The notes under the pieces: generated by a model
What the model was told of the DNA's origin: nothing
Database searches by the model: none
The model's input: only the letters and a program-made list of their open reading frames with translations
Origin: a virus
Lineage: Duplodnaviria > Heunggongvirae > Uroviricota > Caudoviricetes > Ackermannviridae
Direction: 5' to 3' (one strand)
Virus record (IMG/VR): IMGVR_UViG_2974499353_000001
Coordinates: 1-40,720 of that record
DNA: 40,720 nt
Position numbers and translations under genes: made by a program
Part shown: one piece after another, positions 1 to 39,334 of the stretch
Layout: each line of letters opens with the position of its first letter
How positions within the stretch are numbered: position 1 is the stretch's first letter

Positions 1-2742
1 ATGAAAATGCGCAAGTCCGAGCATTTCGTGCGCTCTTCTTCTACCATCGTCGGACAGACATTCAATGTCAAGATGACGGATAAATTATTTGAAACATTAT
101 TCTCAAGTCTCTACAAATATAAAGAGGCGGCGTCTTTACGTGAGACGTTGTGTAATGGTATAGACTCGCATAATATGCGTGATCGCCAACAACGCTGGAT
201 GACATCGTATTATGCTCCTCTCACCCCTATGCCTCAACGATACAGCAAACATCTTGCCCCCAAGGGAACTCCTGTTGTTGTACATTTACCGGATGTTATG
301 GAACCCTGGCTGGAAATTAAAGATTATGGGGTTGGTCTTCCATTAGAAATGATCATCGGCGAGCCTATTACAGCGCGTGAAGATGAAGTGCTGGTTGAAG
401 GTAATATCGTCGTGAAGGAAGACGAAATCCCTGATAGCACTGCTGTTATTGGTACACCTGGTTATTATAATGGGGTACTGGTATTCCGCGCTGAGGATGG
501 CGAGATCATTCGTGGTCCTGGTTTGTATACAACACTCTTCCATAGTACAAAAGAGGACGACGACGGGCAAATAGGGGCGTTTGGGCTAGGTTCTAAATCC
601 CCATTTGCGGTATCTGATTCATTTACAGTAGAAAGTCGCTATGAAGGGAAACTGTATCGCTTCCTGATGTATCTGAATGCGGACAGAATCCCAACTGTAG
701 ATCTCATTACCAAGGATTTAGATACCCGTGATCCTAAACCGGAAGACACTGATGAGTTCAACGGCCTGACTGTTAAAGTTCCTGTAAAGAATCAGCGTTT
801 TACCGCCTTTGAACAAGAGTTGGTCCGTTTGGGTCGAGTGATGCGACCTTCAATGCGACCGAAGGTTGAAAACGCCAGTTATTCTTTCCGTTGGTCTGAC
901 ATCAACTTCGAAAACCGTGTAGGCAACACGTATATTCAGCCGAAGTCTGATTCTGATAATACCCACTATGCTGTTATGGGCGGGGTTTCTTATCCGATAG
1001 ATCTTGAGCAATTGGATTCTGAAATACGTTCGGTGCTGGAGAAATTCCCGAGTTCCTATACCTTCTTCGAACTTGGAGAATTGAATGTTCCTCCATCACG
1101 TGAAGACTTGTCATATGACGAGTTCACCCGTGAAAGCCTGAACCGAGTGTTCAAATATGTGGCTGACAATATTATGCAGGCGAAGATGTATGAACTTCGC
1201 CAGGCCGAATCTATGGGTCCTCTTATGCTTTATATGAAGAAGGCTCAATTGACCGATATGTTCGGTAGCGGTTTCCGTAAATTGGTCGAACGGGAATTTC
1301 CTGCAGATAACCGTTTCTACAAAGGCACGTTCCGTTATATCGGAGCGCCGGACGTCGTGCGCGATTACTCTTTGGATGCACCTTTCCGGTCTATTGGTAG
1401 TCCTTACGAAATTGAAGTACACGACAACGGTGTAGTACACGACAGCATTTATGTGAACTCTGTCGGAAATTGGTTGAAATCTAAATCAAAAATTGCTGTT
1501 ATTATTGATAACTCGAATCGTGCTCGAAACCTGAAGATACAAACAGCACGCAATAACTTCAATGTCGTTATCGTCGTCAAACCGAATGAAAATTATTTCA
1601 GTAATCGGAATCAGCTGGCGGCACATAAAGAATCATTTACCAACCATGAGGAATTGAAGTCTTATTTTGAATCATGGATCGGTGTACAAGAAACAACGCC
1701 GGACTACCTGGTCTTTGCCGATAAACTGATCGAGGTTTTTGGCGATTTATTCAATCCGGATGAAGTCTATTTCATGCATGAAATGGAATATGTTCGCCCG
1801 ACCGTTGAAAAAGATCCTGGGATGTTTAGTTTCCATTACAATTCATTTAACTTCGACAGCGTTTATGAATTAGATGGAAAAACCGTTTCAGATATTATTG
1901 ATTCGGGCAAAAAGATCGTATATATCGAAGTATCTGGCCGAGAAGGTATCCATAAAATTCATGGTATTACCTTACGACAATCCACGGCTGGACATTTGCG
2001 TGAAGCGATGGAAAGAACGAAGTTCGGCGAGAATGGAAACGAAAACCTGTTTGATTTGCTGGGAGCACATCCAACAATCGTTCTTGCGCGTCGTAAATCT
2101 GTTCCGATGATGAAGAAATTCCCAGAAGTATTCATCCCCATTGACGCAGTGTTTGATATGTTGCTTGAGCATTATAAAGATGAATTTCAAGCACTTGAAT
2201 CCAAGAAACTTCTGACACTTCGCAAGGGCATAAACATCATGTCTCATCGCATCGATTATGGTGCCAAGCTGTTGATTGATTCCCATGGAAAAGTTACGGA
2301 TGGCTATGCCCATCATCAGCACAGGGCAAAAGCAATCATCAGTTATGCGAAACAACAAATCACTGAAGAAGAATGGAAGATTGTTCGTATGCTGGCCAAA
2401 CGAAATCCGTCTGGATCGGGGTACGGTTATTTCCGCAAGGCTGTTGAGGAATTACATTATCATATAGAAATGCCTTTCTCAACTACGAGATTTTTCCGCG
2501 CCTGTAACCAGTTAACTCAAGTTGTTGATTTATTGAATGAAAAATTAACTGCTGAAGGATTTGATGAGATAAAGGTCACTAGCACTATATCTCAAAAGCA
2601 AAAGGCCAAAAACCGATACCGAGTTGAATGTCATCGTTTGGTGAAATTCATGATGTCAACATATCAGCCTTCGGCACACAACGCGATTGAAGATGCCACT
2701 AGATTTGTGAAGGCTATTTCAAAACGTATTCTCGGGGCATAA
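1..2742 (+). CDS. rIIA: rIIA protein (N-terminal GHKL/HATPase-like domain)
   Basis: 913-aa ORF. Motifs RETLCNGIDSH, IKDYGVGL and STKEDDDGQIGAFGLGSKSPFA are typical of RIIA; directly followed by rIIB. Confidence 0.92.
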   Translation: MKMRKSEHFVRSSSTIVGQTFNVKMTDKLFETLFSSLYKYKEAASLRETLCNGIDSHNMRDRQQRWMTSYYAPLTPMPQRYSKHLAPKGTPVVVHLPDVMEPWLEIKDYGVGLPLEMIIGEPITAREDEVLVEGNIVVKEDEIPDSTAVIGTPGYYNGVLVFRAEDGEIIRGPGLYTTLFHSTKEDDDGQIGAFGLGSKSPFAVSDSFTVESRYEGKLYRFLMYLNADRIPTVDLITKDLDTRDPKPEDTDEFNGLTVKVPVKNQRFTAFEQELVRLGRVMRPSMRPKVENASYSFRWSDINFENRVGNTYIQPKSDSDNTHYAVMGGVSYPIDLEQLDSEIRSVLEKFPSSYTFFELGELNVPPSREDLSYDEFTRESLNRVFKYVADNIMQAKMYELRQAESMGPLMLYMKKAQLTDMFGSGFRKLVEREFPADNRFYKGTFRYIGAPDVVRDYSLDAPFRSIGSPYEIEVHDNGVVHDSIYVNSVGNWLKSKSKIAVIIDNSNRARNLKIQTARNNFNVVIVVKPNENYFSNRNQLAAHKESFTNHEELKSYFESWIGVQETTPDYLVFADKLIEVFGDLFNPDEVYFMHEMEYVRPTVEKDPGMFSFHYNSFNFDSVYELDGKTVSDIIDSGKKIVYIEVSGREGIHKIHGITLRQSTAGHLREAMERTKFGENGNENLFDLLGAHPTIVLARRKSVPMMKKFPEVFIPIDAVFDMLLEHYKDEFQALESKKLLTLRKGINIMSHRIDYGAKLLIDSHGKVTDGYAHHQHRAKAIISYAKQQITEEEWKIVRMLAKRNPSGSGYGYFRKAVEELHYHIEMPFSTTRFFRACNQLTQVVDLLNEKLTAEGFDEIKVTSTISQKQKAKNRYRVECHRLVKFMMSTYQPSAHNAIEDATRFVKAISKRILGA

Positions 2743-2749
2743 TAGCCCC
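2718..2749 (+). promoter_or_regulatory. Putative promoter TTCAAA-N14-CATAAT with the -10 across the stem/loop of GGGGC-ATAATA-GCCCC
   Basis: TTCAAA 2718-2723, CATAAT 2738-2743; stem 2734-2738/2745-2749 spans the rIIA stop codon, upstream of rIIB. Confidence 0.45.
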
Positions 2750-2774
2750 ATTACCCCACAGTGAGAACTACAAG

Positions 2775-6312: not shown

Positions 6313-6315
6313 TTT

Positions 6316-6537
6316 ATGAAGAGCTTCCAGGATTTCCTTGAAGACTCTTCTGCTCCGGCAACCACGACCGCCGATGTGGGGAAACCCGAAGGCGGTATGG
6401 TTAAGGAGCCTGTCAAAAAACCAAAAGATCTTGAAGAAGAGTCTGATTTTAAAAAGATCTTTGGCAACATTTTCAAAGATTTGGATTTATCCAAGGCGCG
6501 AAAATGGAATTTCAGGACAGGCCAATACGACGATTAA
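6316..6537 (+). CDS. Small protein with T4 internal-protein-like N-terminus (MKSFQDFLE)
   Basis: 73 aa; N-terminus resembles the T4 capsid-targeting sequence MKTYQEFIAE. Confidence 0.7.
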   Translation: MKSFQDFLEDSSAPATTTADVGKPEGGMVKEPVKKPKDLEEESDFKKIFGNIFKDLDLSKARKWNFRTGQYDD

Positions 6538-6557
6538 AGAGGCTTCGGCCTCTTTTT
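6536..6557 (+). terminator. Rho-independent terminator with cUUCGg loop
   Basis: AAAGAGGC-TTCG-GCCTCTTTTT. Confidence 0.88.
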
Positions 6558-6581
6558 CATTTCCAGCATTGGGTGTATAAT
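6556..6581 (+). promoter_or_regulatory. Putative promoter TTCATT-N14-TATAAT
   Basis: Perfect TATAAT 6576-6581 right after the terminator; weak GGGT/ACCC stem around the -10; GAGGA SD before 6625. Confidence 0.55.
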
Positions 6582-6624
6582 GGACCCGTTCCCCATGAGC
6601 GGAACCTAACTGAGGATATACCAA

Positions 6625-7899: not shown

Positions 7900-8474
7900 A
7901 TTTTCTAAAAACTATCTTCAACACATCATATGAACTCAGCCAGCGCGATCCTAATCGTTCTCCTGTGTTTGTATATTGCAAACTCGTGGAAGAGTCTTGT
8001 GAACTATCAGATGTGCTTTATGGAATCGCTGCATCCGAACCCCTGAACGGTGAAGTGGCGGACGTTATCATCTCGGCTCTGGATCTATTATATGTTGTGG
8101 ATTATCAACAAGTTCAACAACATGGGTCTATGTCCAAAGAAGAAATCTTTGACTCCATGGTGTTTGCTTTGGCTATGGCCAATCACACAACTGATCTCAG
8201 TCAACATACGTTGGAGGATTATTGGTTCTACAGTGGTGTTGAAACTATAGACAAATATCTTGCGATGGTTAATCATTACAAAGGCCGCATCACTCGTTTA
8301 CTGAACCAACCTCAACGTTCAGAAGATAATATGGTAGACCTGGTTTCAAATCTGATACGCAATACTGCCAAATTGGCGTGTGGGTATAATCAAAACCATA
8401 TCAACACGATCGTTAAAGTAGAACATGCTATAGAACACAAAGTTGAAAAGTGGCGCACTAAATTTGGTCTATAA
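7896..8474 (+). CDS. MazG-like NTP pyrophosphohydrolase
   Basis: KLVEESCEL...GEVADV acidic metal-binding motif of all-alpha NTP-PPases. Confidence 0.65.
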   Translation: MNFLKTIFNTSYELSQRDPNRSPVFVYCKLVEESCELSDVLYGIAASEPLNGEVADVIISALDLLYVVDYQQVQQHGSMSKEEIFDSMVFALAMANHTTDLSQHTLEDYWFYSGVETIDKYLAMVNHYKGRITRLLNQPQRSEDNMVDLVSNLIRNTAKLACGYNQNHINTIVKVEHAIEHKVEKWRTKFGL

Positions 8475-8500
8475 GCCAACCCCATACATAATCTTGTGTG
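8467..8500 (+). promoter_or_regulatory. Possible promoter GTCTAT-N14-CATAAT with stem-loop CATACA-TAATCT-TGTGTG
   Basis: CATAAT 8487-8492 overlaps a 6-bp stem with one sense-strand U-G pair; upstream of topoisomerase. Confidence 0.35.
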
Positions 8501-8523
8501 TTTACCATTGACGGGATAGGCCG

Positions 8524-11774: not shown

Positions 11775-11792
11775 GGAGGGTGAATTCCCTCC
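11775..11792 (+). terminator. Intergenic hairpin after gp52
   Basis: GGAGGG-TGAATT-CCCTCC; no U-tract, so function uncertain. Confidence 0.35.
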
Positions 11793-12821: not shown

Positions 12822-12846
12822 ATAAATTGGCGGTATAATTGCCGCC
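12813..12846 (+). promoter_or_regulatory. Box-type promoter CTCTATTGAA-N11-TATAAT with -10 in a stem-loop
   Basis: Box 12813-12822; TATAAT 12834-12839; stem GGCGGTA-TAAT-TGCCGCC 12829-12846. Confidence 0.7.
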
Positions 12847-12870
12847 TAACCCCATAATGAGACAAATAAC

Positions 12871-26469: not shown

Positions 26470-26470
26470 T

Positions 26471-26488: not shown

Positions 26489-26493
26489 GATTT

Positions 26494-27921: not shown

Positions 27922-27923
27922 GT

Positions 27924-27974
27924 GTCTCCAGGGTTATTCGTCATGCTATTATAACCCTAGAGACTTCAATAGAA
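27924..27974 (-). promoter_or_regulatory. Box-type promoter TTCTATTGAA-N11-TATAAT plus a 14-bp mRNA stem covering the ligase SD
   Basis: mRNA GUCUCUAGGGUUAU-13 nt-AUAACCCUGGAGAC; -10 at plus 27948-27953; SD GGAG at plus 27926-27929 lies in the 3' arm. Confidence 0.75.
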
Positions 27975-27979
27975 TTATT

Positions 27980-28318
27980 CTAACTCCTTTCCTTGACAGA
28001 CGTAAAAGATTCTTTCCATCCTTTGAATTGTTCAGTCAGGGTTTCTTTCCCCATTTTCCCATTGGAAACGCTATGGATATATGCAAATGCGTCATAACCA
28101 TAACCAGGCATTGCTTCACAAATGCGAAGAGAGACTAATGTTTCACCCACAGAAACCAGATAATGATCACGGCGATGGCTCAGGGGATAGTGGTTGTCAT
28201 GGAACTTGTCGATAACAACACAGTTCTGGGGTTCGGCGTCAATTGCCAGCCCGTTGGCTTCGCTACCGCCGCGCCCAAGGGTGCATCCTGGGAATAATGT
28301 TTCTACGAGTGTGGTCAT
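27980..28318 (-). CDS. Hypothetical protein
   Basis: GAGGA SD; packed in the operon. Confidence 0.65.
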   Translation of the reverse strand: MTTLVETLFPGCTLGRGGSEANGLAIDAEPQNCVVIDKFHDNHYPLSHRRDHYLVSVGETLVSLRICEAMPGYGYDAFAYIHSVSNGKMGKETLTEQFKGWKESFTSVKERS

Positions 28319-28319
28319 A

Positions 28320-28529
28320 TTACTTCCTCATCATATTCAATAAATTAATTTTGCCCTTTGCTTCTGGGGCATACCAAACGTCCTGAGAGTGCCTCTTACA
28401 GCACGGGCAATCCTTAATGGCAATTACACAGGGAGCCTTGTCCACGGCATATCCAGCGTCTTCGGCTTCCTTGACGGTGTTAAATGGCAAGTGCGCACTT
28501 GTGCCTTGCCCTCCGCATGAACATTCCAT
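28320..28529 (-). CDS. Small Cys-rich hypothetical protein
   Basis: CSC...C...CPCC; GGAGGA SD. Confidence 0.65.
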   Translation of the reverse strand: MECSCGGQGTSAHLPFNTVKEAEDAGYAVDKAPCVIAIKDCPCCKRHSQDVWYAPEAKGKINLLNMMRK

Positions 28530-28729
28530 TAAAAATCCTCCTGAGGTGAATAGAATATATCGATTTTCAACGCAAGGCGCTTAACACGGCGAGCGTGACG
28601 ATGTTCTTTCTTTATCCCCTCGGAACGTTTAGCCACAGAACGACGATTTTTATACTTTTCTGAAGGATATTTGTCGTGTCCTGGGCAACAAGATCCAGGA
28701 TCATACACATCCTTAATTTCGCGCTTCAT
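28529..28729 (-). CDS. Small basic hypothetical protein
   Basis: GAGGA SD; coupled. Confidence 0.6.
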   Translation of the reverse strand: MKREIKDVYDPGSCCPGHDKYPSEKYKNRRSVAKRSEGIKKEHRHARRVKRLALKIDIFYSPQEDF

Positions 28730-28846
28730 TCATTTCTTCCTCTTAAAGGGGATGATCAGGGCTATGATTAACAGCATAGCTGTGATCACTCCGCATGCGA
28801 TAAGACCGAATGCAAATGCTTTCAAAACAAATTGTAAAAGAATCAT
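28730..28846 (-). CDS. 38-aa single-TM micropeptide (below ORF-track cutoff)
   Basis: MILLQFVLKAFAFGLIACGVITAMLLIIALIIPFKRKK; GAGGA SD, ATGA overlap upstream, TGA abuts the next ATG. Confidence 0.65.
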   Translation of the reverse strand: MILLQFVLKAFAFGLIACGVITAMLLIIALIIPFKRKK

Positions 28847-30036
28847 AATTTCCTCAGTTTTGCCCTTGTTACCTGAGTTTGTTTAACACCTTTGAATTCG
28901 GTCAATTCTTTAACACGACCACGGATAATCATATCACCTTCCAGGAATTCGGTTTCCATATAAGAAGTCTTCCATGTAATGGTATTGCCTTCTTTGGTTT
29001 TGAAAGTATACAGATACGTGTCACCATAATCAGATGAATACAGGAAAATCCTTGCTTCGAATCTGACTTGCATTTCTAACATTTCACCGACTTCTCCCAC
29101 CCAATTTGATACGGAACGCATTTGGCGCGGGGTGTGAATATAATCATAATACTTTGCTGCTCCCCAACGAACTGTCGTGGAGTCCTTAACGAGATGATAT
29201 CCAGGTTCACACATGCGTTTCAGACGAACGTTGAAATCATTGTTCTCAGACAACGCGGCGATGAAAAGCATCATATGGTACATCTCTGATTGAGCATCTT
29301 CACGGGCTTTAACTGCCTTGTTATAGAATATCTCAATGTCAGAACCTTTCTCCGGACGAGTCCCGCTAGAAATATGACCAAGAACTCGACCAAAATCATC
29401 GCTCTTCATACTCATACCAGACAGCAGAACCTGAAAGCAATTCCGCAAATAACCTTCAGTGTCAACGTAATCAGGTTCGTTCACTCTATAAATGCCTTCA
29501 GGGTCATCTTCATCAGGTGAGAACATTTCATGTATTGACATATAATAAGACATCACAGCATCAAGTGATTTCTGATGAGGAACGTAATGATGCATACAGC
29601 TACTACCGACCAGCATTTGAGCGCCGGATTGTTCGTTACGAACAACATATGTGTTATGACGACGCACAGATTTATTACAATGCTCACACCAAGACACGTT
29701 TTCGGCTTCGAATCTTTGAATGAAATTAGGATGGATGTCATCTGCTAATTTATTCAAGATGACTTTTGGATATTGGTGATTGAATTGTCCAATAATACCC
29801 CACCCGCCGTATGAAACGGGGCGATCGATGCCTTCACCAGTGAGTGTGCAATCCTGCCACCACCGATAGAATTTTCCACCAGTGATAGAATCGCGATGCT
29901 GGGTTTTGTATGGTTCGCTGTATTCGACAAGAGGGAACTCGAGATTCAGGCGCTTGGCCGTTCTTTCAAGTTTGGCCAGACGTTCCTTGACACGACCAAT
30001 ATTGTCGATAGGAATACTGAAGGTCTTGGCTTTCAT
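28843..30036 (-). CDS. Conserved phage protein with Zn-finger and C-terminal OB-fold-like domain
   Basis: CEHC...R...VGSSC..H; C-terminal VG.VGE.L.M.V...YG...LY.F...GN...W.....I.G.VKE..EFKG.KQT...RAK. Confidence 0.7.
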   Translation of the reverse strand: MKAKTFSIPIDNIGRVKERLAKLERTAKRLNLEFPLVEYSEPYKTQHRDSITGGKFYRWWQDCTLTGEGIDRPVSYGGWGIIGQFNHQYPKVILNKLADDIHPNFIQRFEAENVSWCEHCNKSVRRHNTYVVRNEQSGAQMLVGSSCMHHYVPHQKSLDAVMSYYMSIHEMFSPDEDDPEGIYRVNEPDYVDTEGYLRNCFQVLLSGMSMKSDDFGRVLGHISSGTRPEKGSDIEIFYNKAVKAREDAQSEMYHMMLFIAALSENNDFNVRLKRMCEPGYHLVKDSTTVRWGAAKYYDYIHTPRQMRSVSNWVGEVGEMLEMQVRFEARIFLYSSDYGDTYLYTFKTKEGNTITWKTSYMETEFLEGDMIIRGRVKELTEFKGVKQTQVTRAKLRKL

Positions 30037-30079
30037 ATCTGCCTCTCATGATGTAGTGAAACTTTTCAAAGTAGGTTAA

Positions 30080-30103
30080 ATGATAGCCGTATGTTTTATT
30101 GAA
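30080..30103 (-). promoter_or_regulatory. Possible promoter TTCAATAAAA-N8-TATCAT
   Basis: Box at plus 30094-30103 right after a terminator; spacing shorter than at other sites. Confidence 0.4.
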
Positions 30104-30114
30104 GTAAAGGTTTC

Positions 30115-30145
30115 AAATAAAAAGCCCAACAAATTGTTGGGCTTT
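30115..30145 (-). terminator. Rho-independent terminator (11-bp stem)
   Basis: AAAGCCCAACA-ATT-TGTTGGGCTTT followed by TTATTT on the - strand. Confidence 0.85.
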
Positions 30146-30154
30146 CTTGGGAAT

Positions 30155-30466
30155 TTACGGCTGAGGATCGTCTGTACGATCAGGCGCTGCATTAGGATAC
30201 AGAGACTCATAGAGATCTTGGTATTTGGCGCTGGTCTCGATGGTCTTGGTGTATGTTCCGCCAGCGCGGTCAGTAACGACTTTGCGCAGATCAACGGCTT
30301 TGATGCCTGTTTCTTTTGCCAATTCGGCCAGAGCTTCGGTAACAAATGTCTGTTCAGACTTGATACGGATCTGGGCGGCGCGGCAATTTTCCAATGTCTG
30401 CATCATCTTTTGACGCAGTTTAGGATCAGAAGGAAGTTGGTAAAACCCGATTTGTTCAACTGACAT
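30155..30466 (-). CDS. T4 DsbA-like double-stranded DNA-binding protein
   Basis: Helical pattern I.SE...V.E...ELAKE.GI....LRKVV....Y.DLYE resembles T4 DsbA; GAGGA SD. Confidence 0.55.
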   Translation of the reverse strand: MSVEQIGFYQLPSDPKLRQKMMQTLENCRAAQIRIKSEQTFVTEALAELAKETGIKAVDLRKVVTDRAGGTYTKTIETSAKYQDLYESLYPNAAPDRTDDPQP

Positions 30467-30478
30467 AACATATCCTCA

Positions 30479-30811
30479 TTAATGACGAGAACCGAGTGGG
30501 CCAATACTGGTCCCCAAACGGCGCAGGAAGAAATAAACGATACTGTGGAAACCAAACTTAGGAATAATGTCGACGCCTTCGACTTTATAATATTCCTGAG
30601 TATTGGTCTGCACTGGCAACGGGAAAGACGGAAGATCAAGCTGAACCAATTCCCCTGGTTCGCAATGTATCTTGACTGCTTTACCCCAATGCCGACGATT
30701 CTTATAAAATTCCAATGTCTGCTCTGTAGAGAGACTGAGACTGGTTTGTCCAGACTGGCACACCTGTTGTGCCGCCTGAATCAGGTCAGCTATAAATGCA
30801 ACATCCGACAT
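30479..30811 (-). CDS. Hypothetical protein
   Basis: AGGAG SD; downstream of a box promoter. Confidence 0.7.
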   Translation of the reverse strand: MSDVAFIADLIQAAQQVCQSGQTSLSLSTEQTLEFYKNRRHWGKAVKIHCEPGELVQLDLPSFPLPVQTNTQEYYKVEGVDIIPKFGFHSIVYFFLRRLGTSIGPLGSRH

Positions 30812-30835
30812 GATGTGCTCCTGGGTTAATATTCA

Positions 30836-30873
30836 GATCATAGAGATTATACCCTATGACCGCCATTATTGAA
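30836..30873 (-). promoter_or_regulatory. Box-type promoter TTCAATAATG-N12-TATAAT; -10 forms the exact loop of a 10-bp stem
   Basis: On - strand GGTCATAGGG-TATAAT-CTCTATGATC (two sense-strand G-U pairs). Confidence 0.7.
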
Positions 30874-30874
30874 G

Positions 30875-32299
30875 TTAACCGAAATTCCAACTATTGACGG
30901 TCTCGGCTTTTTTAACATCATTTGAGTCACCTGTTTTATTCAAATCATGCTTGATATGAACGTTTTCAACATAACGGGCTTCTTCATCAGTCAGGTCTCG
31001 TTTGACTTCATTCCAGTCCAAGTCGAACAAGATCTGCTTATCTTGATCCATACCAAACAAGAATGATTTGAGTTTCTGCTTGTTGGCATAACGATTTTTC
31101 AAGATTGATGCTCTGGCTTTCTTAACAGCCGCCAGTTCGTCTGGGGCATAAAATGCCATGATAAAGTCAGCGACCTTCGGGATACCGATAGCATCTGCCA
31201 AGTCACTGATATCACCATCAGTTGCTGATTGCTTTTCACGGTTAAACTGCATACCTGTCCAAACAGGGCAATCAAACTCAAACCCAAGAGCACGGAATTC
31301 ACGCGCCACAGATGTATAATACACGTTGGTGTTTTGCATCAAGTGGGCGGGTAAACGAGAAGACGCCGATTCGCCCAAGTAGTCAATGATGATAACATCA
31401 GGTGTAATTCCTGTTGCAGTCGCATAATCAAGAATATCGCGGCGATACAAACCTGTATGCCCCGCGCCCGAAGGATATTCCTTGATAACAATATCACCCT
31501 TCATAGAACCGTCTTGACGGGTTCTCAGTTTTTGTATGGTGGCAATATACTCGTGCCGTGAGAGCTTCTCTAAGGACTCGAAGTCCCTGCGCATCATACG
31601 GGCATCAAGGCGGTGACGCCAGACGTTCTCGGCCACTTCGAGGGTGAATACGAACACATTCAGTCCCTGCTCGGCATAACCCGCAGCCAAATCAATCAGA
31701 GTCGTTGTCTTACCTGCGTTAATTGCGCCTGTAACGATGTTCAATGTTTTCTTACCAACACCACCACGAGTTGCTTTGTTGAATATCTCTACAGCGAAAG
31801 GGATCTTCGCTTCATTAGAGTTCATGTGGTCGTATTGTTGCTCAGCCATTTCCCAATAGATATGGCCAAGATAAGAATCAAAACTTATCGCCAACGCCTC
31901 TTGTAGGAGAGTTGGAATCGTGTTCATCTCATCTTTACGTTTCTCATCACCATAGATGTTGACGGCGTGTTTGATCGCATTATGAACAGCTTTCTGCCGC
32001 GCCCAACTTTCTGTTTCTTTTACAAGCCATTCCTGATGGAATGTGTTGTCATTGATATTCTCAAGAGCAGAAATAGCTTGTTCAAATACGTGTTCGTTGA
32101 GCGAAGTCTTTTCCAGCATAATAGACAACGCTTCAACCGAAGGACGAGCATTATATTCGCAAGTGTAATGGTCAATGAGACCGAATATAATTTTCTCGCC
32201 TTCGTTATCGAAATAATCGGCTTTCAAATACGGCTGGATCTTTCTTTGATATTCTTCGTTATAGATTAATTGGGAAAGCACGACAGATTCGAGTAACAT
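30875..32299 (-). CDS. gp41: Replicative DNA helicase
   Basis: GAINAGKTT Walker A, FTLEVAE, IVIKEYPSG, IIIDYLG, WTGMQFNR, ILKNRY. Confidence 0.95.
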   Translation of the reverse strand: MLLESVVLSQLIYNEEYQRKIQPYLKADYFDNEGEKIIFGLIDHYTCEYNARPSVEALSIMLEKTSLNEHVFEQAISALENINDNTFHQEWLVKETESWARQKAVHNAIKHAVNIYGDEKRKDEMNTIPTLLQEALAISFDSYLGHIYWEMAEQQYDHMNSNEAKIPFAVEIFNKATRGGVGKKTLNIVTGAINAGKTTTLIDLAAGYAEQGLNVFVFTLEVAENVWRHRLDARMMRRDFESLEKLSRHEYIATIQKLRTRQDGSMKGDIVIKEYPSGAGHTGLYRRDILDYATATGITPDVIIIDYLGESASSRLPAHLMQNTNVYYTSVAREFRALGFEFDCPVWTGMQFNREKQSATDGDISDLADAIGIPKVADFIMAFYAPDELAAVKKARASILKNRYANKQKLKSFLFGMDQDKQILFDLDWNEVKRDLTDEEARYVENVHIKHDLNKTGDSNDVKKAETVNSWNFG

Positions 32300-32305
32300 T
32301 GGCAA

Positions 32306-32635
32306 CTACCCCACCAAAATTTTGTTGTAATCCTGAGCATTTTGCTGTATCAGATCAACTAAGATATCCCCAGACACCACAGTGAACAAGTCATTTTCTT
32401 TCAAATTAACAAATAACAAACGCCATGGTTTCTTCAATATATCTGTTGTAAAGGATAACCGAGGCTCTCCATTATCTAAATGGACACCCACTTTCCCTAT
32501 ACGAAATTGAACGCCACGGAATTTGCCTTCCGTTATTTCGATTATTGCTAACTGATCAGAACCAGGGTCGATGATTTTGTAATTAACGGGGGAGTCTCCT
32601 CCCCCTGCAATATTACTCGGTTGTTTTGATGACAT
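32306..32635 (-). CDS. Conserved T4-like hypothetical protein in the gp40 position
   Basis: I.EG.F.GV..R.GKV...LSF...F...GDILVDL; lies between uvsX and gp41. Confidence 0.65.
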   Translation of the reverse strand: MSSKQPSNIAGGGDSPVNYKIIDPGSDQLAIIEITEGKFRGVQFRIGKVGVHLDNGEPRLSFTTDILKKPWRLLFVNLKENDLFTVVSGDILVDLIQQNAQDYNKILVG

Positions 32636-33698
32636 TATCGAGGCGCTCCAGCATATCTGCAGGCATAACCGAACTCTGAGAGATACCGAACATGTTGTTC
32701 ACATCGTCAACAAAGTCTGGGTTTTCCAGCAGCGGATACCAGAAGTCATCCCCCAGCTCTGCCTTACGATATTTCTTTTCTTTTTCTGGATCAAACCCGC
32801 CTTTGGCAGTGCGTTGATACCAAGAACCACTCACCAAATCCACATACCCCAGCATGCGCGCAATTTCTAACATACCGGACCAACGGTCAATACCGCCTTC
32901 ATACAACACAGTGACAGGGAACTTGGCTTTTTCACGGACAAAGCGGCCTTTCATAATGTTGACTGTAAACTGCCATCCCAAAAGGTCTTTGTCTTCTTTA
33001 ACTTGAGAACGCGTGATGAACCACAATTGGTTAGAAGACAGGAACCCCTGTTTACCGCCTTTGATGTTCGGCTCGGCGTATTGGTTCCCGATTTCATCAT
33101 AGTACGAGTTGATCCATACCAAAACGAATTTCTTTTCAGTGACCAACGGGGTGATAACACGCCAAAAACTATTGAGAGCGCGAGCGCGGGTCATATCTTG
33201 TGTGTCTTTGCCCGCGATGGCATCATCAACTTCTTTGGTAGACGGCAACTGGCTGATTGAGTCAATGAATACGATGATCTTGTCACCTTTCTGAGCATCA
33301 TTCAGAAGCTGTGTCAGTTTGATCTTCGTCTTTTCAACGTTTTCAATCGGCAGATACAAGACACGGTCCATGTCAATACCCATAGATGTCCAGTAGTTTT
33401 CATTCGCACCGCCTTCTGAATCCGCGAAGATACAAATTGCATCAGGAAACTTATCCATGTAAGCCTTAACATCCACCAGCCCAAACATGGTTTTGAATGT
33501 ACGAGAATCCCCCACCAACTGTTTGATGCCTGATATCAGACCACCATCAATACGACCGGACCAGGCCAAATTCAGAATAGGAATACCCGTACTGCAAATA
33601 ATGTCAGGCTTCAGCGCATCGGTCTTTGACAGCACTTCGGCATTCGGGTCCAGTTTCTTTGCTGTCTTGAGCATGCGAGCCATCAATGAATCGGCCAT
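32613..33698 (-). CDS. uvsX: UvsX RecA-like recombinase
   Basis: STGIPILNLAWSG, GDSRTFKT, FADSEGG, VFIDSI, DMTRARALNS, KGGKQG. Confidence 0.95.
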   Translation of the reverse strand: MADSLMARMLKTAKKLDPNAEVLSKTDALKPDIICSTGIPILNLAWSGRIDGGLISGIKQLVGDSRTFKTMFGLVDVKAYMDKFPDAICIFADSEGGANENYWTSMGIDMDRVLYLPIENVEKTKIKLTQLLNDAQKGDKIIVFIDSISQLPSTKEVDDAIAGKDTQDMTRARALNSFWRVITPLVTEKKFVLVWINSYYDEIGNQYAEPNIKGGKQGFLSSNQLWFITRSQVKEDKDLLGWQFTVNIMKGRFVREKAKFPVTVLYEGGIDRWSGMLEIARMLGYVDLVSGSWYQRTAKGGFDPEKEKKYRKAELGDDFWYPLLENPDFVDDVNNMFGISQSSVMPADMLERLDNVIKTTE

Positions 33699-34213
33699 TT
33701 CGTTTCCTCTTGCTTGTTGATCGTAATTAATAAATCGGTGCCCAAGACTTTCTTGGACAATATATTGATTGCTTCGTGAATCGCCATTATTGACGGGAGT
33801 TTTTCATCGTTAATTTCGGAACCCCCGCGTTCTGTTAAATACATATTACGCAGACGATTGTGCTGTGCCCTGTTGACACAAGAAACATTCAATGCGATAT
33901 TCAGGATATACATCATTTGTTCAGTTGTAACATCCTTTGGAATAGCATGAACATAATATATCGCATCTTCAAAATAGATATGCTGCAATGACTCTGGAAT
34001 TTCTTCCCCGCCAAAAGCAAAATCTTCAATGCGTTTGAAAAGGGTTTCCGGCTCTGGAGTTGTAATATGTTGCGTTACAGTAGCCGCACCATCCGGTTCT
34101 TTGTTGAATTTGGTCGCGATAACGACATGTCTGCCAGGTTTAATAAACTCAGCAAAGTTCTCTGCCATTTGCGGGGCATGTTCCGCATAATATGATACGA
34201 CAACTGTAAACAT
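33683..34213 (-). CDS. Hypothetical protein
   Basis: 176-aa ORF coupled to dUTPase (TAATG). Confidence 0.7.
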   Translation of the reverse strand: MFTVVVSYYAEHAPQMAENFAEFIKPGRHVVIATKFNKEPDGAATVTQHITTPEPETLFKRIEDFAFGGEEIPESLQHIYFEDAIYYVHAIPKDVTTEQMMYILNIALNVSCVNRAQHNRLRNMYLTERGGSEINDEKLPSIMAIHEAINILSKKVLGTDLLITINKQEETKWPIH

Positions 34214-34770
34214 TAGAACTCCAGGGTCAGAGGGGTTTCTGCGGACTTATCATAGTTCGCACCGCCAGCAGCACGTAGACGATTGCGATCATTTTTGCGT
34301 TTGTGTGCCAGCATGTAAGTTTCGGCGTCCAGCCCCACGTAAGAGCAAGACGCGCTCAGGAAATACATCAGGGAACGAACGCAAGGATCGCCCATGAACT
34401 GTCCAAAGCGGTAGGTCACCCCGCCGTGGGCAACTATGCCGTTAACGATAGACATGGCATAACTATCCTTAGACATTTCCTCTAATTCTTCCTCGATCTC
34501 TCCTTTGGTGCGATCGACGAGGATGAAACACAGCATGAAGTGAACCACGTCCACCAGTTCATAGACCGCCTTCGTGCGGTCGAAGCCGATATCGTTACCA
34601 TAGACCTTCCAGTCGGCGGTCGTTTCGTCAAGAAACTCTGCCCACTCACGATATATGGAGTTGACGACGGCGTTCTGACTCCATACATTCTTCCACTCTT
34701 CCCCAAAATAGGCCACGTTGGTGGCCTTTTGGAGTTCGAGCAGACTTTTAATATGCTCTGCTGTGATCAT
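34213..34770 (-). CDS. Dimeric (all-alpha) dUTPase / dCTPase-dUTPase
   Basis: REWAEFLDE...WKVY...ELVDVVHF...Y..K...N..R acidic motifs. Confidence 0.85.
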   Translation of the reverse strand: MITAEHIKSLLELQKATNVAYFGEEWKNVWSQNAVVNSIYREWAEFLDETTADWKVYGNDIGFDRTKAVYELVDVVHFMLCFILVDRTKGEIEEELEEMSKDSYAMSIVNGIVAHGGVTYRFGQFMGDPCVRSLMYFLSASCSYVGLDAETYMLAHKRKNDRNRLRAAGGANYDKSAETPLTLEF

Positions 34771-35336
34771 TTCCGATCCCTATAAAATTTGACGAACGGT
34801 TGCCAACCTTCAAACGGATTGACAAATTCATAATCAACTTCCATCTTATCAATGAAAGCCTCAATGTCATCCTCTATGATACCACCGCGATCCGCCTTTG
34901 AAATGCGGGTGATGGGACATTTAGTGCTCAGCGCCCATTCATATTCCTGAGGGGTACGCAAATCACTCACGATATAATGAACGTGTGGGTTCTGCTCCAC
35001 CAAAGGAAGTTGATATCGTTTAAAGAATGACAGGAACAGGTCTGGTTGTACATAACGCAAGCCCGTATCGCTGCCCAGATGAAGCCAGATCTGCCGTGGG
35101 GTTAAGCCCTTGGGGTTATCAGGGTGTACGAATGGAACGTCCTTCACAGCATCCTCCACCTCCGCTGGTAGCCATGGGTAGATGAAATTGGCGACACGTC
35201 GCAGTTCATCTGAGAAAGACAGACGACGAATATCCTTATCACCCTGAATATGATGAAAACTGATCAGGGACTCCAAACAGAAGTCCTTGCCGGAGCGCTT
35301 GCGCCCCGTGAAGAATTCAAGGTTCTGGTACATCAT
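34767..35336 (-). CDS. gp1: Deoxynucleoside monophosphate kinase
   Basis: TGRKRSGKD P-loop, SFSDELR, TPRQIW..LG...R, IVSDLR.PQE. Confidence 0.88.
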   Translation of the reverse strand: MMYQNLEFFTGRKRSGKDFCLESLISFHHIQGDKDIRRLSFSDELRRVANFIYPWLPAEVEDAVKDVPFVHPDNPKGLTPRQIWLHLGSDTGLRYVQPDLFLSFFKRYQLPLVEQNPHVHYIVSDLRTPQEYEWALSTKCPITRISKADRGGIIEDDIEAFIDKMEVDYEFVNPFEGWQPFVKFYRDRK

Positions 35337-36376
35337 TCGCCATACCCCCACATAAATTTCTGATCAACAGGGGAATGCAGTAATGCAGTACGAAGACCGT
35401 CATCAGCGATACGGCGTTTGTCAATTTTGGTATCATTGAGGCGACACCACAGGCAATATGACATATCCATCATCAATCCCGTGTCTGCTTGATATCCTTT
35501 CAGATGTTCTCTGATTTTACCAAAATCACTGCCGATGTCACAGTGTTGTAACACGCCGAGGAATAGATTACAAATATCTTTTTGGGACTTCACTTTTTCT
35601 GAAGAGAATTCCAGCAAAGAATTATACATCCCAGAAGAAGTTTTGGTCTTCTTAGTGATACCCCCGAGTTGTTTCCGACTAACTTCATTGTTGTAATAAT
35701 GAAGATTGTTAGAAAACAGTTTGTAATACCCAACTTCGACATTCAGCACTTTCGCCAGAACTTCTTGCAGGATAGAGAATTCAATGAAATTGATTGAACT
35801 CATGCCCCACAAGACATCTTGGCTGCGGTTAATGACAGTGATATTCAATCGCCCTTCTGTTATACTGAACAATAGAGCAAGATTACAGATCATGTCCTTG
35901 GTCTTGGCTTCTCCAGTTTCACTATGGGCGGCCAAACCTTCATCTGAGTCCAGCGCCGGATCATAGATGGTGAGATACGCCTGACGGGTGTTGGGATTAT
36001 TACGCAGACGGCTGATGACACTATCCAACTGGCCATTATTGTACAGACGTGGGCCATACGCGCCTCGCCAGGTTACACCGTCATCAGAGAAGTTGGCGGC
36101 GCGGGGTAAGACTTTCGAAAGGAAACGGATATCATTACGTCCGGACAACACCCAGAATGTCTCACCGATGGCAGCAATTGCCGACGAGTTGCGGCCTTCA
36201 ACGGAAAGCCAACGATCACGTGGATCTGATACTGTAATTGTTACACCATCAATGAAACGAGTGCCGTCAGTGTTAATCTCTGCGTTGCCAGGATCTGACT
36301 CAATGCCGTGTTCACGGATGGCCAACACAGCCTTCTTCAGCATATCATTATTGTTTAAAGCAAAAATTTCCATCAA
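35333..36376 (-). CDS. Thymidylate-synthase-family dUMP hydroxymethylase
   Basis: YGPR, NPNTRQAY..IYDP, DMICN, NRSQDVLWG..SIN (Asn as in dUMP-specific enzymes), NLHYY. Confidence 0.85.
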   Translation of the reverse strand: MMEIFALNNNDMLKKAVLAIREHGIESDPGNAEINTDGTRFIDGVTITVSDPRDRWLSVEGRNSSAIAAIGETFWVLSGRNDIRFLSKVLPRAANFSDDGVTWRGAYGPRLYNNGQLDSVISRLRNNPNTRQAYLTIYDPALDSDEGLAAHSETGEAKTKDMICNLALLFSITEGRLNITVINRSQDVLWGMSSINFIEFSILQEVLAKVLNVEVGYYKLFSNNLHYYNNEVSRKQLGGITKKTKTSSGMYNSLLEFSSEKVKSQKDICNLFLGVLQHCDIGSDFGKIREHLKGYQADTGLMMDMSYCLWCRLNDTKIDKRRIADDGLRTALLHSPVDQKFMWGYGE

Positions 36377-37035
36377 TCAATACTCCCAAAATCACGATTG
36401 AGAAACGCAAAAACAGCCTGCTCTATAGTCAGGCCATTGGACTTCATCATACCTGCGGGAACGGTAGGGAACAAGCCTTTATGCCGTTGGCGGTGGTCAT
36501 GAACTCTCTCCCACTTTTCGACAACCAGGCTTTCATTGAAGTCTGCGCCGCCGTTGCGTGATTTCACACGGGAAACACAGGTTTCAAGCGGGGTGTCCAT
36601 GAAGAGCACGACTAATTCGCGCGGTGGGCGCGTCAGGCGGGGAATCCATGAGCTGAGCAAAGTTGAAGGGATGATTCCTTCAAACAACACGTCATATTTC
36701 AGATATTCCGGCTGATCAGCAATGGACAAGGCGAACAACATCTGCTCGGTATCTTTCAGGGAATCAACACCTTTAGACTTAGACTTGTCATATTTACCAA
36801 TACAGATAATGTTATAGGAAGGGCAAACTGTGAGCATGATCTTGCCATTGTAGGTCACGACATACGCCTGAGGATCATTCTCCGCCAGATAGGAAGGGAC
36901 AGTGGACTTGCCGCTACCGTTGGAGCCTTTAACGTAATACAACTCTCCTCGTGCCGGATATTCCCCTTCGACAGCAGGTGGTTTTACAAACAGATGTACG
37001 GGGCGCTTCAACAACCCTTTGAGCGAATACGACAT
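36373..37035 (-). CDS. P-loop kinase, probable 5-hydroxymethyluracil DNA kinase
   Basis: KGSNGSGKST, GVDSL, LFEGI, TPLETC.SRV..RNGG; adjacent to the dUMP hydroxymethylase; GGAG SD before ATG 37035. Confidence 0.65.
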   Translation of the reverse strand: MSYSLKGLLKRPVHLFVKPPAVEGEYPARGELYYVKGSNGSGKSTVPSYLAENDPQAYVVTYNGKIMLTVCPSYNIICIGKYDKSKSKGVDSLKDTEQMLFALSIADQPEYLKYDVLFEGIIPSTLLSSWIPRLTRPPRELVVLFMDTPLETCVSRVKSRNGGADFNESLVVEKWERVHDHRQRHKGLFPTVPAGMMKSNGLTIEQAVFAFLNRDFGSID

Positions 37036-37048
37036 GGTGTGCTCCAAT

Positions 37049-37092
37049 AAACAAAAGGAGCTGCTATTATAGCAGCTCCTTCATCTATTGAA
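37049..37092 (-). promoter_or_regulatory. Box-type promoter TTCAATAGAT-N11-TATAAT; -10 at the centre of a perfect 11-bp inverted repeat followed by a U-tract
   Basis: AGGAGCTGCTA-TAA-TAGCAGCTCCT (37056-37080) then TTTGTTT on the - strand. Confidence 0.75.
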
Positions 37093-37107
37093 TGCTTCTG
37101 AGTTAAA

Positions 37108-38067
37108 TTACGCAGCAGCTTTCGCTTCGGCTAACGCCTGAGGTAGCCATTCGTTGATAGCCTTTACCAGAGATTCAGCGTCAGTTTCTTTGATTTTCTG
37201 ACGCTTGGTGAATGACTTACCATTCACATACAGACTGAAACCCCAGCCGCCGGAAACGATAGGTGCCAGATCAACATAGGTGTTAGTGCGGGCATGCGGA
37301 TTGGCTTCGTCTGCCAATTCAGTGACAGGGAACTGGAACCAGCGCATATCAGGGTTCACATAACTCAAATATACTTCAGGAGTAACCCCTGCTTCAACCG
37401 CCGCCAGGATTGGACCATAGTTAGAAGCACGAGCGGCTTCAACCATTTCTTCACGTTTGTTATGACGACGCTTGCGTTCTTCAGTAGAAGACGCAGGACG
37501 CATTTCAGAAGATTTCTTGGCCAGAACCGCCTTCGCGTTCGCTAAAGCCTGATCATCCTTCGGATTTTCAACGTCGGCGATTGCTTCAGCAACGGTTGTG
37601 CCCAGCATACGACGGCGAACTTCTTCAGCACGGGCTTGCGCTTCTTCGTCAAGAACTTCTTCGCCTTCAACTACCAGGGAAATGGAGCCGTCTTTGTTGA
37701 CTTCAAGAGAACCGTCTTCGACGGTCTGGGAATTTTGATCACCGACAGGTTGCCCAACCGTTTCTTCGGCGTCAATCACCGGATTTGATTCACCGTCGCC
37801 CTGTTTAACCCCCGCATCTTCGGTCGGTTTAACTTTTTCGGCTTCAGCGCGGTCAAGAGCTTCGAGAGTCTCTTCTTTCTCTTCCTGGCTCAGACCTTCA
37901 ATGAGTTCAAAGCCGTTGGCTGACTGGAGGACGCCTTCCATCATACGGCGTAACGTGACGTTGCCGATGATAAGGTCTGCACCTTTGATTTCTGCTTGAA
38001 GATCAGCAGCGGTTTTACCATCAATTTCAAATTTCAGGCCGGACTCGATATGAAGAATATAGGACAT
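37108..38067 (-). CDS. Hypothetical protein with acidic low-complexity linker
   Basis: 319 aa; N-terminal NUMOD1-like pattern, E/A-rich middle, basic stretch EERKRRHNKRE. Confidence 0.75.
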   Translation of the reverse strand: MSYILHIESGLKFEIDGKTAADLQAEIKGADLIIGNVTLRRMMEGVLQSANGFELIEGLSQEEKEETLEALDRAEAEKVKPTEDAGVKQGDGESNPVIDAEETVGQPVGDQNSQTVEDGSLEVNKDGSISLVVEGEEVLDEEAQARAEEVRRRMLGTTVAEAIADVENPKDDQALANAKAVLAKKSSEMRPASSTEERKRRHNKREEMVEAARASNYGPILAAVEAGVTPEVYLSYVNPDMRWFQFPVTELADEANPHARTNTYVDLAPIVSGGWGFSLYVNGKSFTKRQKIKETDAESLVKAINEWLPQALAEAKAAA

Positions 38068-38134
38068 AATAAAAACCCTTTTGTGTAGTAACCTTCTTTG
38101 GCAGTTTAATGTTCAACTGTGCGTCTGGAACATT

Positions 38135-38177
38135 AATATACTGCCTTTTTAGAAGATGTAAACCACTTTTTATTGAA
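38135..38177 (-). promoter_or_regulatory. Sigma70-like early promoter TTTACA-N16-TATATT with an upstream TTCAATAAAA box
   Basis: Plus-strand AATATA 38135-38140, TGTAAA 38157-38162, TTTTATTGAA 38168-38177. Confidence 0.65.
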
Positions 38178-38240
38178 AAGTTGGTTAACACTTCTGTGTT
38201 AGACAACGGAACGCTGGTACAGCGCGGACTGACGTGAATA

Positions 38241-38528
38241 TTAACTTTGTATATCAATATTGAAAACTGTTTTAGGTGGCCACATGGCAGATAACTCGAT
38301 CTGTGTGAACTTCGGTTGAACATACTGATCTAACACTTCATCCCAGAGAGCATGCTCAACATTGGCAATCAACAATTCGTCATCCACTATTTCGACGGAA
38401 TGAACCACTATCCGGTGATCATAAGTCAGAGCGTCGCCCACGTGTTCATTTTCTGCTCTGAGGTGCTGCATTATGAAATATTCTATAACTGATTCAAGTA
38501 CAGTGTTCAGACGAACATATTTCTTCAT
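38241..38528 (-). CDS. Hypothetical protein
   Basis: AGGGGG SD; 95 aa. Confidence 0.7.
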   Translation of the reverse strand: MKKYVRLNTVLESVIEYFIMQHLRAENEHVGDALTYDHRIVVHSVEIVDDELLIANVEHALWDEVLDQYVQPKFTQIELSAMWPPKTVFNIDIQS

Positions 38529-38545
38529 ACAGCCCCCTGATATCT

Positions 38546-39277
38546 TTACATGTAGAAGTTTGGAATCTCACCAGACGCGCAATGGAATCCATTAAAATTC
38601 TGCTCAACATGTAAGCGAATTTTGTTGACAACAACTTGGCGATGCTCTTCTTCCATACAGCGTTCGATCAATGAATATGAAGTGTACGCCAGGCTGTTAA
38701 ACAATCTGGAAATGATCAGACACGTCTCTTCATCGTATACAACATCCGGATGAATACCAAAAACATGTTCTTCATCAATCAGAATTTTACATCCCTTCAC
38801 GATAAACGGTTGACTAAAGAAATGACGAGCGGAAGAAGTGCCGGATTCTTCTGTCAATAGGAAATCGCCAGTCTCTCCGAAAACTGCTTTCAAGTTTTCT
38901 TCACTGAATTCGGCTTCCATTTGAATACGCTTGTCGGCAAGGTATTTCACAGCAAAATGAAATTTACCAACAGCATCATTGGCGGCGCGACGATTGTTAG
39001 CGGCATGGGTATAACCTGTCACGAAGTCTTCAACAAATTCTAAGACTTCAGGCTTACCAAAACGAACCTCATCCCCCAGATCTAAAGCAGCCTCGGATTC
39101 AAATTCAATACCCATAGCTGTGAAAAGAGTTTGTTCACTCAGGCGGCGCTCTTCAGTATACCCCAAACGAGATCCAAGTTCGTAACCAGTCTTGCCGCCG
39201 GAGTCTTTGTGAGTGCGGTCATAACGAACGCTGTTGGAACTGAATTCAATACCAAAAATTCTGTGTAGATATGACAT
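38546..39277 (-). CDS. Hypothetical protein
   Basis: 243-aa ORF (GAGG SD; alternative ATG at 39283). Confidence 0.75.
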   Translation of the reverse strand: MSYLHRIFGIEFSSNSVRYDRTHKDSGGKTGYELGSRLGYTEERRLSEQTLFTAMGIEFESEAALDLGDEVRFGKPEVLEFVEDFVTGYTHAANNRRAANDAVGKFHFAVKYLADKRIQMEAEFSEENLKAVFGETGDFLLTEESGTSSARHFFSQPFIVKGCKILIDEEHVFGIHPDVVYDEETCLIISRLFNSLAYTSYSLIERCMEEEHRQVVVNKIRLHVEQNFNGFHCASGEIPNFYM

Positions 39278-39299
39278 ATGTGGAACCTCATGTTTATAG

Positions 39300-39334
39300 A
39301 AAGCCGTTCGCGAATTATCACGTAGAACGGCTTT
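39300..39334 (-). promoter_or_regulatory. 10-bp hairpin with a -10-like GATAAT in its loop (terminator/promoter)
   Basis: AAAGCCGTTC/GAACGGCTTT stem; plus ATTATC 39314-39319 in the loop; lies between gp2 and the next gene. Confidence 0.5.

Follow-up and report, generated by a model that had tools for sequence, protein, structure and literature searches.

The stretch of DNA analyzed here, referred to as the window (40,720 nucleotides, nt; IMG/VR record IMGVR_UViG_2974499353_000001), comprises the first 40.7 kb of the 157,013-bp genome of a Kuttervirus (Ackermannviridae), a Salmonella phage of the CBA120/Vi01 type. Both Salmonella phage barely and CBA120 match it at 98-99% identity, and it is colinear with the latter from rIIA on. 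Our subject is a group of short intergenic spacers in which a stem-loop of the read-through RNA encloses a hexamer resembling a -10 promoter element, and which probably represent compact terminator/attenuator and promoter cassettes similar to the promoter-early stem-loops (PeSL) of T4-type phages. The gene map of the window contains 60 genes, and all 22 spacers of at least 15 nt were listed and folded on the sense strand. For the whole genome, the manual calls in the window were combined with a gap-filled automatic map elsewhere, which agreed with 57 of the 60 manual calls; the genome-wide counts given below carry some error in spacer definition that comes from the automatic map outside the window. 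This map yielded 82 strong sense-strand spacer hairpins, 13 of which are of the loop type, meaning that a -10-like hexamer (5-of-6 match) overlaps the loop. For comparison, 60 IMG/VR loci around the ligase, the topoisomerase and the gene at 37108-38067 were collected, which span Kuttervirus as well as Agtrevirus-, Taipeivirus-, Limestonevirus- and Erwinia-phage-like genomes. No match to Rfam was obtained at gathering thresholds anywhere in the window, so that the stems do not belong to known structured RNA families or ribozymes.

Nine stems built around -10-like hexamers

A preliminary description of this DNA had pointed to nine inverted repeats placed around -10 hexamers. All nine are present (S1 to S9 in order of position), and eight of them are stable on the sense strand (-10.9 to -26.5 kcal/mol), while the stem at 8483 is marginal (-5.6 kcal/mol). 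The hexamer within or next to the loop is a perfect TATAAT in S3, S5, S6 and S7, TATACT in S4 and TATATT in S8, but S1 and S2 have only CATAAT, and S9 only GATAAT. On the + strand, S1 (2734-2749; -10.9 kcal/mol) is a 5-bp GC hairpin without a U-tract between rIIA and rIIB, whose loop, ATAATA, contains the rIIA stop codon (2740-2742) together with CATAAT (2738-2743), and in S2 (8483-8500) CATAAT (8487-8492) is enclosed by a weak stem of 6 bp, two of them G·U pairs. S3 (12829-12846; -12.7 kcal/mol), likewise without a U-tract, consists of the 5' arm GGCGGTA, a TATAAT (12834-39) spanning the loop, and the 3' arm TGCCGCC. The 9-bp stem of S4 (17894-17916; 17894-17902 paired with 17908-17916; -18.0 kcal/mol), in which TATACT (17904-09) extends across the loop and the 3' arm, is followed by the U-rich tail GTTTTATT and then by the Shine-Dalgarno (SD) sequence GGGAG, the whole element reaching to 17924.

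The other stems are found on the - strand. S5 (27924-27964; -21.7 kcal/mol) is a 14-bp stem (27951-64 with 27924-37) in which TATAAT (27948-53) is placed where the 5' arm meets the loop; the SD sequence of the ligase gene, GGAG, is located inside its 3' arm, and the stem stops 2 nt short of the ATG (27921). In S6 (30836-30861; -13.1 kcal/mol) a 10-bp stem with two G·U pairs and no U-tract (30852-61 with 30836-45) closes a loop that is exactly TATAAT (30846-51), and in S7 (37055-37081; -26.5 kcal/mol) TATAAT (37066-71) is centered on the 3-nt loop of a 12-bp stem, from which the U-tract TTGTTTATT (37046-54) leads into the SD sequence GGAG. S8 (38100-38145; -19.0 kcal/mol) is a bulged 15-bp stem (38128-45 with 38100-14) with the -10 (TATATT, 38135-40) within its 5' arm, and S9 (39300-39334; -17.4 kcal/mol) is a 10-bp stem (39325-34 with 39300-09) whose 15-nt loop contains an invariant GATAAT (39314-19). 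The U-tracts and the similar leaders that had been noticed after 17894 and 37056 were both confirmed.

Most of the loop hexamers are positioned 10-14 nt downstream of a box that reads TTCAATA(A/G) at S6 (TTCAATAA, 30866-73), at S7 (TTCAATAG, 37085-92) and in a cassette at 26444-88. The box is found at the same distance from the -10 in either orientation, the inverse form (C/T)TATTGAA being present at S3 (CTATTGAA, 12815-22, including the stop codon of the upstream gene), S4 (TTATTGAA, 17885-92) and S5 (CTATTGAA, 27965-72), and weaker variants at N12-13 precede S1 (TTCAAAAC, 2718-2725, N12, within coding sequence), S2 (GTCTATAA, 8467-8474, N12) and S9 (GTTCTAAA, 39333-40, overlapping the upstream stop codon). 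In addition to those at S6 and S7, forward copies of TTCAATAA in the window are located at 26462-69, 30096-103 and 38170-77. Genome-wide, 18 of its 40 copies fall into sense-strand noncoding DNA, which makes up 6.7% of the genome, and the most frequent distance between the box and a -10-like hexamer is exactly 12 nt. The distance from the start of the hexamer to the start codon is 32-41 nt in 11 of the 13 loop-type cases. Because of the enriched box 10-14 nt upstream and this distance to the start codon, the hexamers are plausible promoters, and the loop-type sites can plausibly be regarded as putative box-type promoters without a -35 element. The -10 is placed in a loop in 9 of about 13 box-type promoters in the whole genome, and at 26449 and genome position 134091 box-N12-TATAAT occurs with no hairpin around it. 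At CTTTAC-N17 promoters TTCAATAA sits instead inside the spacer between -35 and -10. A sigma-70 consensus scan of 25300-40720 detected a canonical pair only at S8 (TTTACA-16-TATATT) and at 30108-30080; the former, a canonical T4-early-like promoter (GTTTAC at 38158-63, N17, TATATT), is the best sigma-70 match of the scanned region. A canonical sigma-70 reading of the loop-type sites was rejected, since they have no -35 element at 16-18 nt. In CBA120 no homologue of MotA or AsiA is present, and early and middle promoters could not be identified (Kutter et al., 2011, PMC3184105). Our literature search on the TTCAATAA box found nothing relevant, and N4-type hairpin promoters or single-strand promoters were set aside, no search aimed at them being made, as nothing in the window suggests a virion RNA polymerase.

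Chance, conservation and the layout of the spacers

When the loops of the 82 hairpins were randomized with the arms held fixed, a perfect TATAAT on the loop was expected 0.6-1.0 times, compared to six occurrences in sense and none in antisense orientation (P<=0.001). Likewise, 5-of-6 matches to TAnnnT were found on 13 loops in sense and 6 in antisense orientation, with a null expectation of 2.8-4.7 (P<=0.0005). The preliminary description had proposed a genome-wide device, which is not borne out by the 13 loop-type cases among the 82 strong hairpins; the remaining 69 have ordinary loops, often UUCG or GNRA, and longer spacers use a separate terminator. The control that it had named, a comparison with stems around shuffled or other AT hexamers, came out divided. 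Flanks pairing at -10 kcal/mol or below were observed for 15% of the -10-like hexamers; after shuffling of the flanks the share fell to 3.4%, and among other all-AT hexamers it was 7.9%, whereas tests on the whole distribution (all -10-like hexamers against shuffles or other AT hexamers) were not significant. As only the tail of the distribution differs, the effect is confined to a subset of sites, for which the association of the -10 with the loop is real and goes beyond chance.

In related genera the arms covary at 2734, 12829, 17894, 30836 and 39300 (S1, S3, S4, S6 and S9), while the box and the -10 stay fixed. S1 is kept in three genus-level groups, among which a G-C pair has once become A-U by a double change and G·U variants occur, and it is missing from the Erwinia-phage-like loci of the comparative set. 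At S3 two pairs are doubly compensated in two Erwinia-phage-like loci (L037 and L038), in which the arms are essentially replaced and TATAAT and the box are kept, and relatives of S4 show a change of the arms from GGGGAAG to GGAGAG, with pairing and TATACT kept and at least one double change. For S6, double changes were found at three pairs and 97% of the alignment cells are paired, with the closing G·U, the box and TATAAT invariant, and none of 500 shuffles reached the observed pairing or covariation score. S9 has one G-C to C-G double change and a loop sequence that is kept in three genus-level groups, and the stem of S8 is partial in Agtrevirus-like loci and not evident in Taipeivirus-like loci. 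These compensatory changes support the notion of selection on structure, which is not proven for every site; the arm covariation across relatives that the preliminary description had proposed to look for was found at S1, S3, S4, S6 and S9 and not at S2, S5 or S7. At S2 no covariation was detected in the comparative loci, and a 2-nt deletion in two of them (L028 and L033) shortens the stem. The hairpin at 8483 is thus not supported as a structure, while a promoter may still be present there. The MazG-topoisomerase spacer in which it lies (8475-8523, + strand) is near-invariant across three genus-level groups, with a weak stem and no covariation, and this suggests a sequence-specific site, for example a protein operator or a promoter, rather than a structure. 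The genes upstream of S5 and of the cassette at 26444-26488 differ between phages, homology resuming at the box or the hairpin, and where the upstream gene is replaced, the cassette remains with the downstream gene. None of the listed stems coincides with either of the two breakpoints at which the window departs from CBA120 (18253/18652 and 28319/28378).

With respect to their layout, S4 and S7 show the canonical shape of intrinsic terminators, six of the 8 nt behind the 9-bp stem of S4 being T, and S7, the best terminator among the nine sites, was picked up independently by a terminator scan. The median distance from the stop codon to the stem of the loop-type hairpins is 14 nt, and that from the end of the stem to the ATG is 24 nt. 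The SD sequence follows 10-40 nt beyond the stem at S1, S3, S4, S6, S8 and S9, and is partly reached by the extended helix of S7. Spacers of the loop type have a median length of 63 nt, compared to 105.5 nt for those with separate hairpin and promoter (P=0.0007), and in longer spacers a separate terminator is located upstream of the promoter (6536-81, 15263-95, 26444-88 and 30080-145). In loop-type hairpins the 3' arm runs 7-16 nt past the hexamer. Transcription from sigma-70 promoters starts 6-8 nt downstream of the -10, and on the assumption that this rule applies to the loop-type sites, a local transcript would start within or after the 3' arm and would be unable to fold. The earlier statement that a transcript from the local promoter lacks the 5' arm follows from this geometry, with a start about 7 nt after the -10.

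Interpretation of the loop-type spacers

We consider it probable, at roughly 0.62, that the loop-type spacers are compact terminator/attenuator and promoter cassettes of the PeSL type, with promoter activity, termination and their interplay read from the arrangement of the DNA. According to this model, the short spacer between tandem genes would have to accommodate a hairpin that serves the 3' end of the preceding message, the promoter of the following gene and a ribosome site within a leader of about 25 nt. Two pieces of the promoter would be fixed, the upstream box (TTCAATAA or its inverse) and the -10, while both the intervening 10-14 nt and the bases that follow the -10 would be free in sequence, with the hairpin arms built there; as GC-rich arms could arise only from free positions, the fixed AT-rich -10 would become the loop. 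Read-through RNA from upstream would contain both arms and fold. At sites with a U-tract (17894, 37056 and about half of the genome-wide set) the folded RNA would terminate transcription, at sites without one it would bring about attenuation or provide a protected 3' end, and at 27924 (S5) it would also bury the ribosome site of the ligase gene. RNA begun about 7 nt after the -10 would start inside or after the 3' arm and could not fold. Termination itself appears plausible for only some of the loop-type hairpins.

Several observations weigh against this interpretation. In the sigma-70 scan of 25300-40720 no canonical -35 element was found at 16-18 nt for S5, S6, S7 and S9, and a literature search found no transcription start site (TSS), RNA 3'-end or transcriptome data for any Ackermannviridae or Kuttervirus phage. 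An automated tail count, which understates S4 and S7 because folding extended their stems into the tail, gave at least 5 T in 8 nt at 4 of the 13 loop-type hairpins (74891, 81458, 87058 and 155306, all outside the window) and at least 4 T at 7 of them, proportions that are no worse than in other hairpins, and S1, S3, S5, S6 and S9 lack the combination of a GC stem with a U-tract of at least 5 T in 8. The changes in S5 (97.6% of cells paired in 12 sequences) are one-sided (wobble) only, without double compensation; the same applies to S7, whose arms are near-invariant across genera, and few independent lineages are behind the covariation events. Of the terminator/promoter hand-over proposed in the preliminary description, the part that stands is the presence of selected sense-strand stems enclosing promoter-like hexamers; general termination falls short, with a usable U-tract in only 4 to 7 of the 13.

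It seems rather unlikely that the hairpins act only after transcription, on read-through RNA and without stopping RNA polymerase, as 3'-end protectors, as processing sites following Rho-dependent or distant termination, or as translational gates of the T4 gene e type, with the promoter overlap being a space-saving by-product. Such a role would be in line with the lack of a U-tract in over half of the loop-type hairpins, with the burial of the SD sequence by S5 up to 2 nt before the ATG, with the contact of the extended S7 helix to the SD sequence, and with the precedent in T4 (PMC3014915). Moreover, conserved covarying hairpins without a U-tract or promoter hexamer exist; the one at 11775-11792 (+ strand), which follows the gene for the topoisomerase medium subunit, has arms that covary (GGAGGG to GGGGGC) and a loop that is free to vary between genera, in contrast to the fixed TATAAT loops. 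However, the canonical terminator shapes at S4, S7 and several sites outside the window argue against a purely post-transcriptional function, as does an SD sequence that is well clear of the stem in six of the nine sites.

A second alternative, that the loop hexamers are not promoters, appears improbable. UAUAAU would then be an RNA loop motif for a protein or nuclease, or the AT-rich center of a palindrome, and the box the A-tract of a terminator. Consistent with this, a canonical -35 is missing, TAT-A-ATA is itself near-palindromic, at S7 the U-tract is able to pair with the A-rich half of the box, and near-matches occur in antisense orientation as well (6 versus 13 in sense). By contrast, the perfect TATAAT is confined to the sense orientation, box-N12-TATAAT exists without a hairpin at the two positions given above, the distance from hexamer to ATG is tight, and the loops of non-promoter hairpins vary freely between genera while the TATAAT loops are fixed.

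Very little speaks for a device at the DNA level, the alternative raised in the preliminary description, in which a cruciform extruded by supercoiling presents or pre-melts the -10. The central position of the -10 in the loop would fit, as would the long and perfect arms of some stems (S7), but 11 of the 13 loop-type hairpins have their G·U pairs on the sense strand, the invariant closing G·U of S6 among them, and the sense fold is more stable than that of the complementary strand in all 13. A sense-strand G·U corresponds to an A·C mismatch on the complementary strand, which argues against a cruciform and favors an RNA structure, as the preliminary description had reasoned from G-U pairs on the coding strand. 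In addition, several arms are just 5-7 bp long and loops reach up to 13-15 nt. In ViI-type DNA about 40% of the thymidines are replaced by 5-NeOmdU (PMC5889632), a bulky cationic modification that might bear on extrusion. A chance overlap of AT-rich loops and AT-rich hexamers, to which the non-significant whole-distribution tests and the 7.9% of other all-AT hexamers in stems might point, is scarcely credible, as loop randomization, strand bias, conservation and covariation all disagree with it.

Related systems and separate layouts

Composite cassettes of an early promoter combined with a stem-loop, the PeSL, have been described in the T4-type phages RB49/phi1, T4/PST and KVP40/nt-1 (Arbiol et al., 2010, PMC2839356; Comeau et al., 2014, PMC4122927). 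Their stem-loop represents a terminator or attenuator, is found most commonly between -35 and -10 or over the -10 box, and was shown with its G-T pairs marked (PMC2839356). Among the 23 perfect-consensus promoters listed for RB49, we found the -10 in a hairpin loop at seven, one of which has a stem of -20.7 kcal/mol and a U-tract. In RB49 and Kuttervirus alike, a stable stem-loop lies within or beside the promoter and commonly overlaps the -10, and in both the cassettes remain with the downstream gene when neighbors are swapped. The PeSL, however, have a sigma-70 -35, while in the Kuttervirus loop type its place is taken by the TTCAATAA box, which can face either way and is separated from the -10 by 10-14 nt, and a sigma-70 early promoter with a -35/-10 spacing of 16-18 nt was not found at S5, S6, S7 or S9 in the scan of 25300-40720. 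Furthermore, the Kuttervirus cassettes belong to another phage family, several of them precede core replication genes and not only small ORFans, and their arm sequences are unrelated between copies, thus offering little homology for recombination. The Kuttervirus cassette would work like a PeSL but is not a member of this group, since the sigma-70 -35 is missing and the box differs. The arrangement itself is not new, as PeSL overlapping the -10 are already published (PMC2839356) and the same geometry is seen in RB49; the results do not reveal a new kind of regulatory device but would show the design principle of the PeSL in a second family, also of large myoviruses. The box-N12-TATAAT-hairpin unit provides testable promoter/terminator candidates for phages used in the biocontrol of Salmonella and E. 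coli O157.

A version of the stem-loop cassette with a Mot box, the promoter-middle stem-loop (PmSL), is known from vibriophage nt-1 (Comeau et al., 2014, PMC4122927). Similar to the Kuttervirus cassettes, it combines an activator-type box in place of the -35, at a fixed short distance to a -10-like hexamer, with a stem-loop. Yet the box there is the MotA-type TGCTT and here TTCAATAA, phages of the CBA120 type have no MotA or AsiA homologue (PMC3184105), and TGCTT about 12 nt upstream of the -10 was seen in none of the listed loop-type upstream regions. In the T4 genes e, soc, 49 and I-TevI, the DNA for the 5' strand of an inhibitory RNA helix also contains a promoter (PMC3014915). There, as would follow here from the geometry, only upstream transcripts form the helix and the local transcript lacks its 5' strand, and S5 buries the SD sequence of the ligase gene in the same way. 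However, the internal promoter of T4 is a late one (TATAAATA) and its purpose is translational silencing, while the hexamer here is TATAAT-like and most Kuttervirus stems do not touch the SD sequence.

At bacterial promoter-coupled terminators, a bound promoter complex is reported to raise termination efficiency; the DNA of the stem-loop supplies the -35, the T-tract is just upstream of the -10, and the termination site precedes the TSS by about 10 bp (Fletcher et al., 2026, bioRxiv 10.64898/2026.08.19.745784). In both systems adjacent tandem units share terminator and promoter DNA, and intergenic regions are shorter where the two overlap. In Kuttervirus, by contrast, the -10 lies inside the loop, ahead of the T-tract, and the expected TSS is upstream of the U-tract; the bacterial layout is not found at the loop-type sites and fits the separate cassettes at 6536-6581 and 15263-15295. 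Whether the overlap is, beyond saving space, a working switch, in which a phage factor would read TTCAATAA in either orientation and load RNA polymerase onto the loop -10, is doubtful. If it were, a promoter roadblock would raise termination and read-through would occlude the promoter, resulting in a timed hand-over between transcription units in a family without MotA/AsiA and without defined early or middle promoters.

Among the spacers in which hairpin and promoter are separate, that at 26444-26488 (- strand) has a UUCG-loop hairpin (26471-88), directly followed by TTCAATAA (26462-69), N12 and TATAAT (26444-49), and relatives carry a hairpin of other sequence at the same place. At 30080-30145 (- strand) a classical terminator (30121-45) precedes CTTTAC (30104-09) and TATCAT (30080-85), with TTCAATAA in the spacer between them, and at 15263-15295 (+ strand) TATAAT (15290-95) is found 9 nt past the stem of a terminator (15263-80). 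The spacer at 6536-6606 (+ strand) contains a terminator with a UUCG loop (6536-55), TATAAT (6576-81) 20 nt on, and a conserved 5'-leader hairpin (6587-6606) just past this hexamer and ahead of a gene for a histone-like protein of the HU family. The loop of the leader hairpin, CCCATGAG, is invariant, and covariation of its stem (GTTCC/GGAAC to GTCTC/GAGAC) extends to Erwinia-phage-like loci; a role as a regulatory or stabilizing leader element is conceivable. The leaders after S1 (2751-2767) and S3 (12847-12863), both on the + strand, share the motif ACCCCA(C/T)A(G/A)TGAGA(A/C), which resembles the CCCCATGAG loop at 6592-6600.

In one related IMG/VR contig (L011), the spacer between the ligase and the downstream gene contains a run of more than 20 G, followed by TTACCCC, in place of the short GC hairpin of its relatives; the run is probably an artefact that arose at a hairpin during sequencing or assembly. 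Relative to CBA120, the block upstream of the ligase region is replaced at 28319-28378, with CBA120 positions 27923-28792 absent from the window, and an extra gene encoding 134 amino acids is present at 18252-18656.

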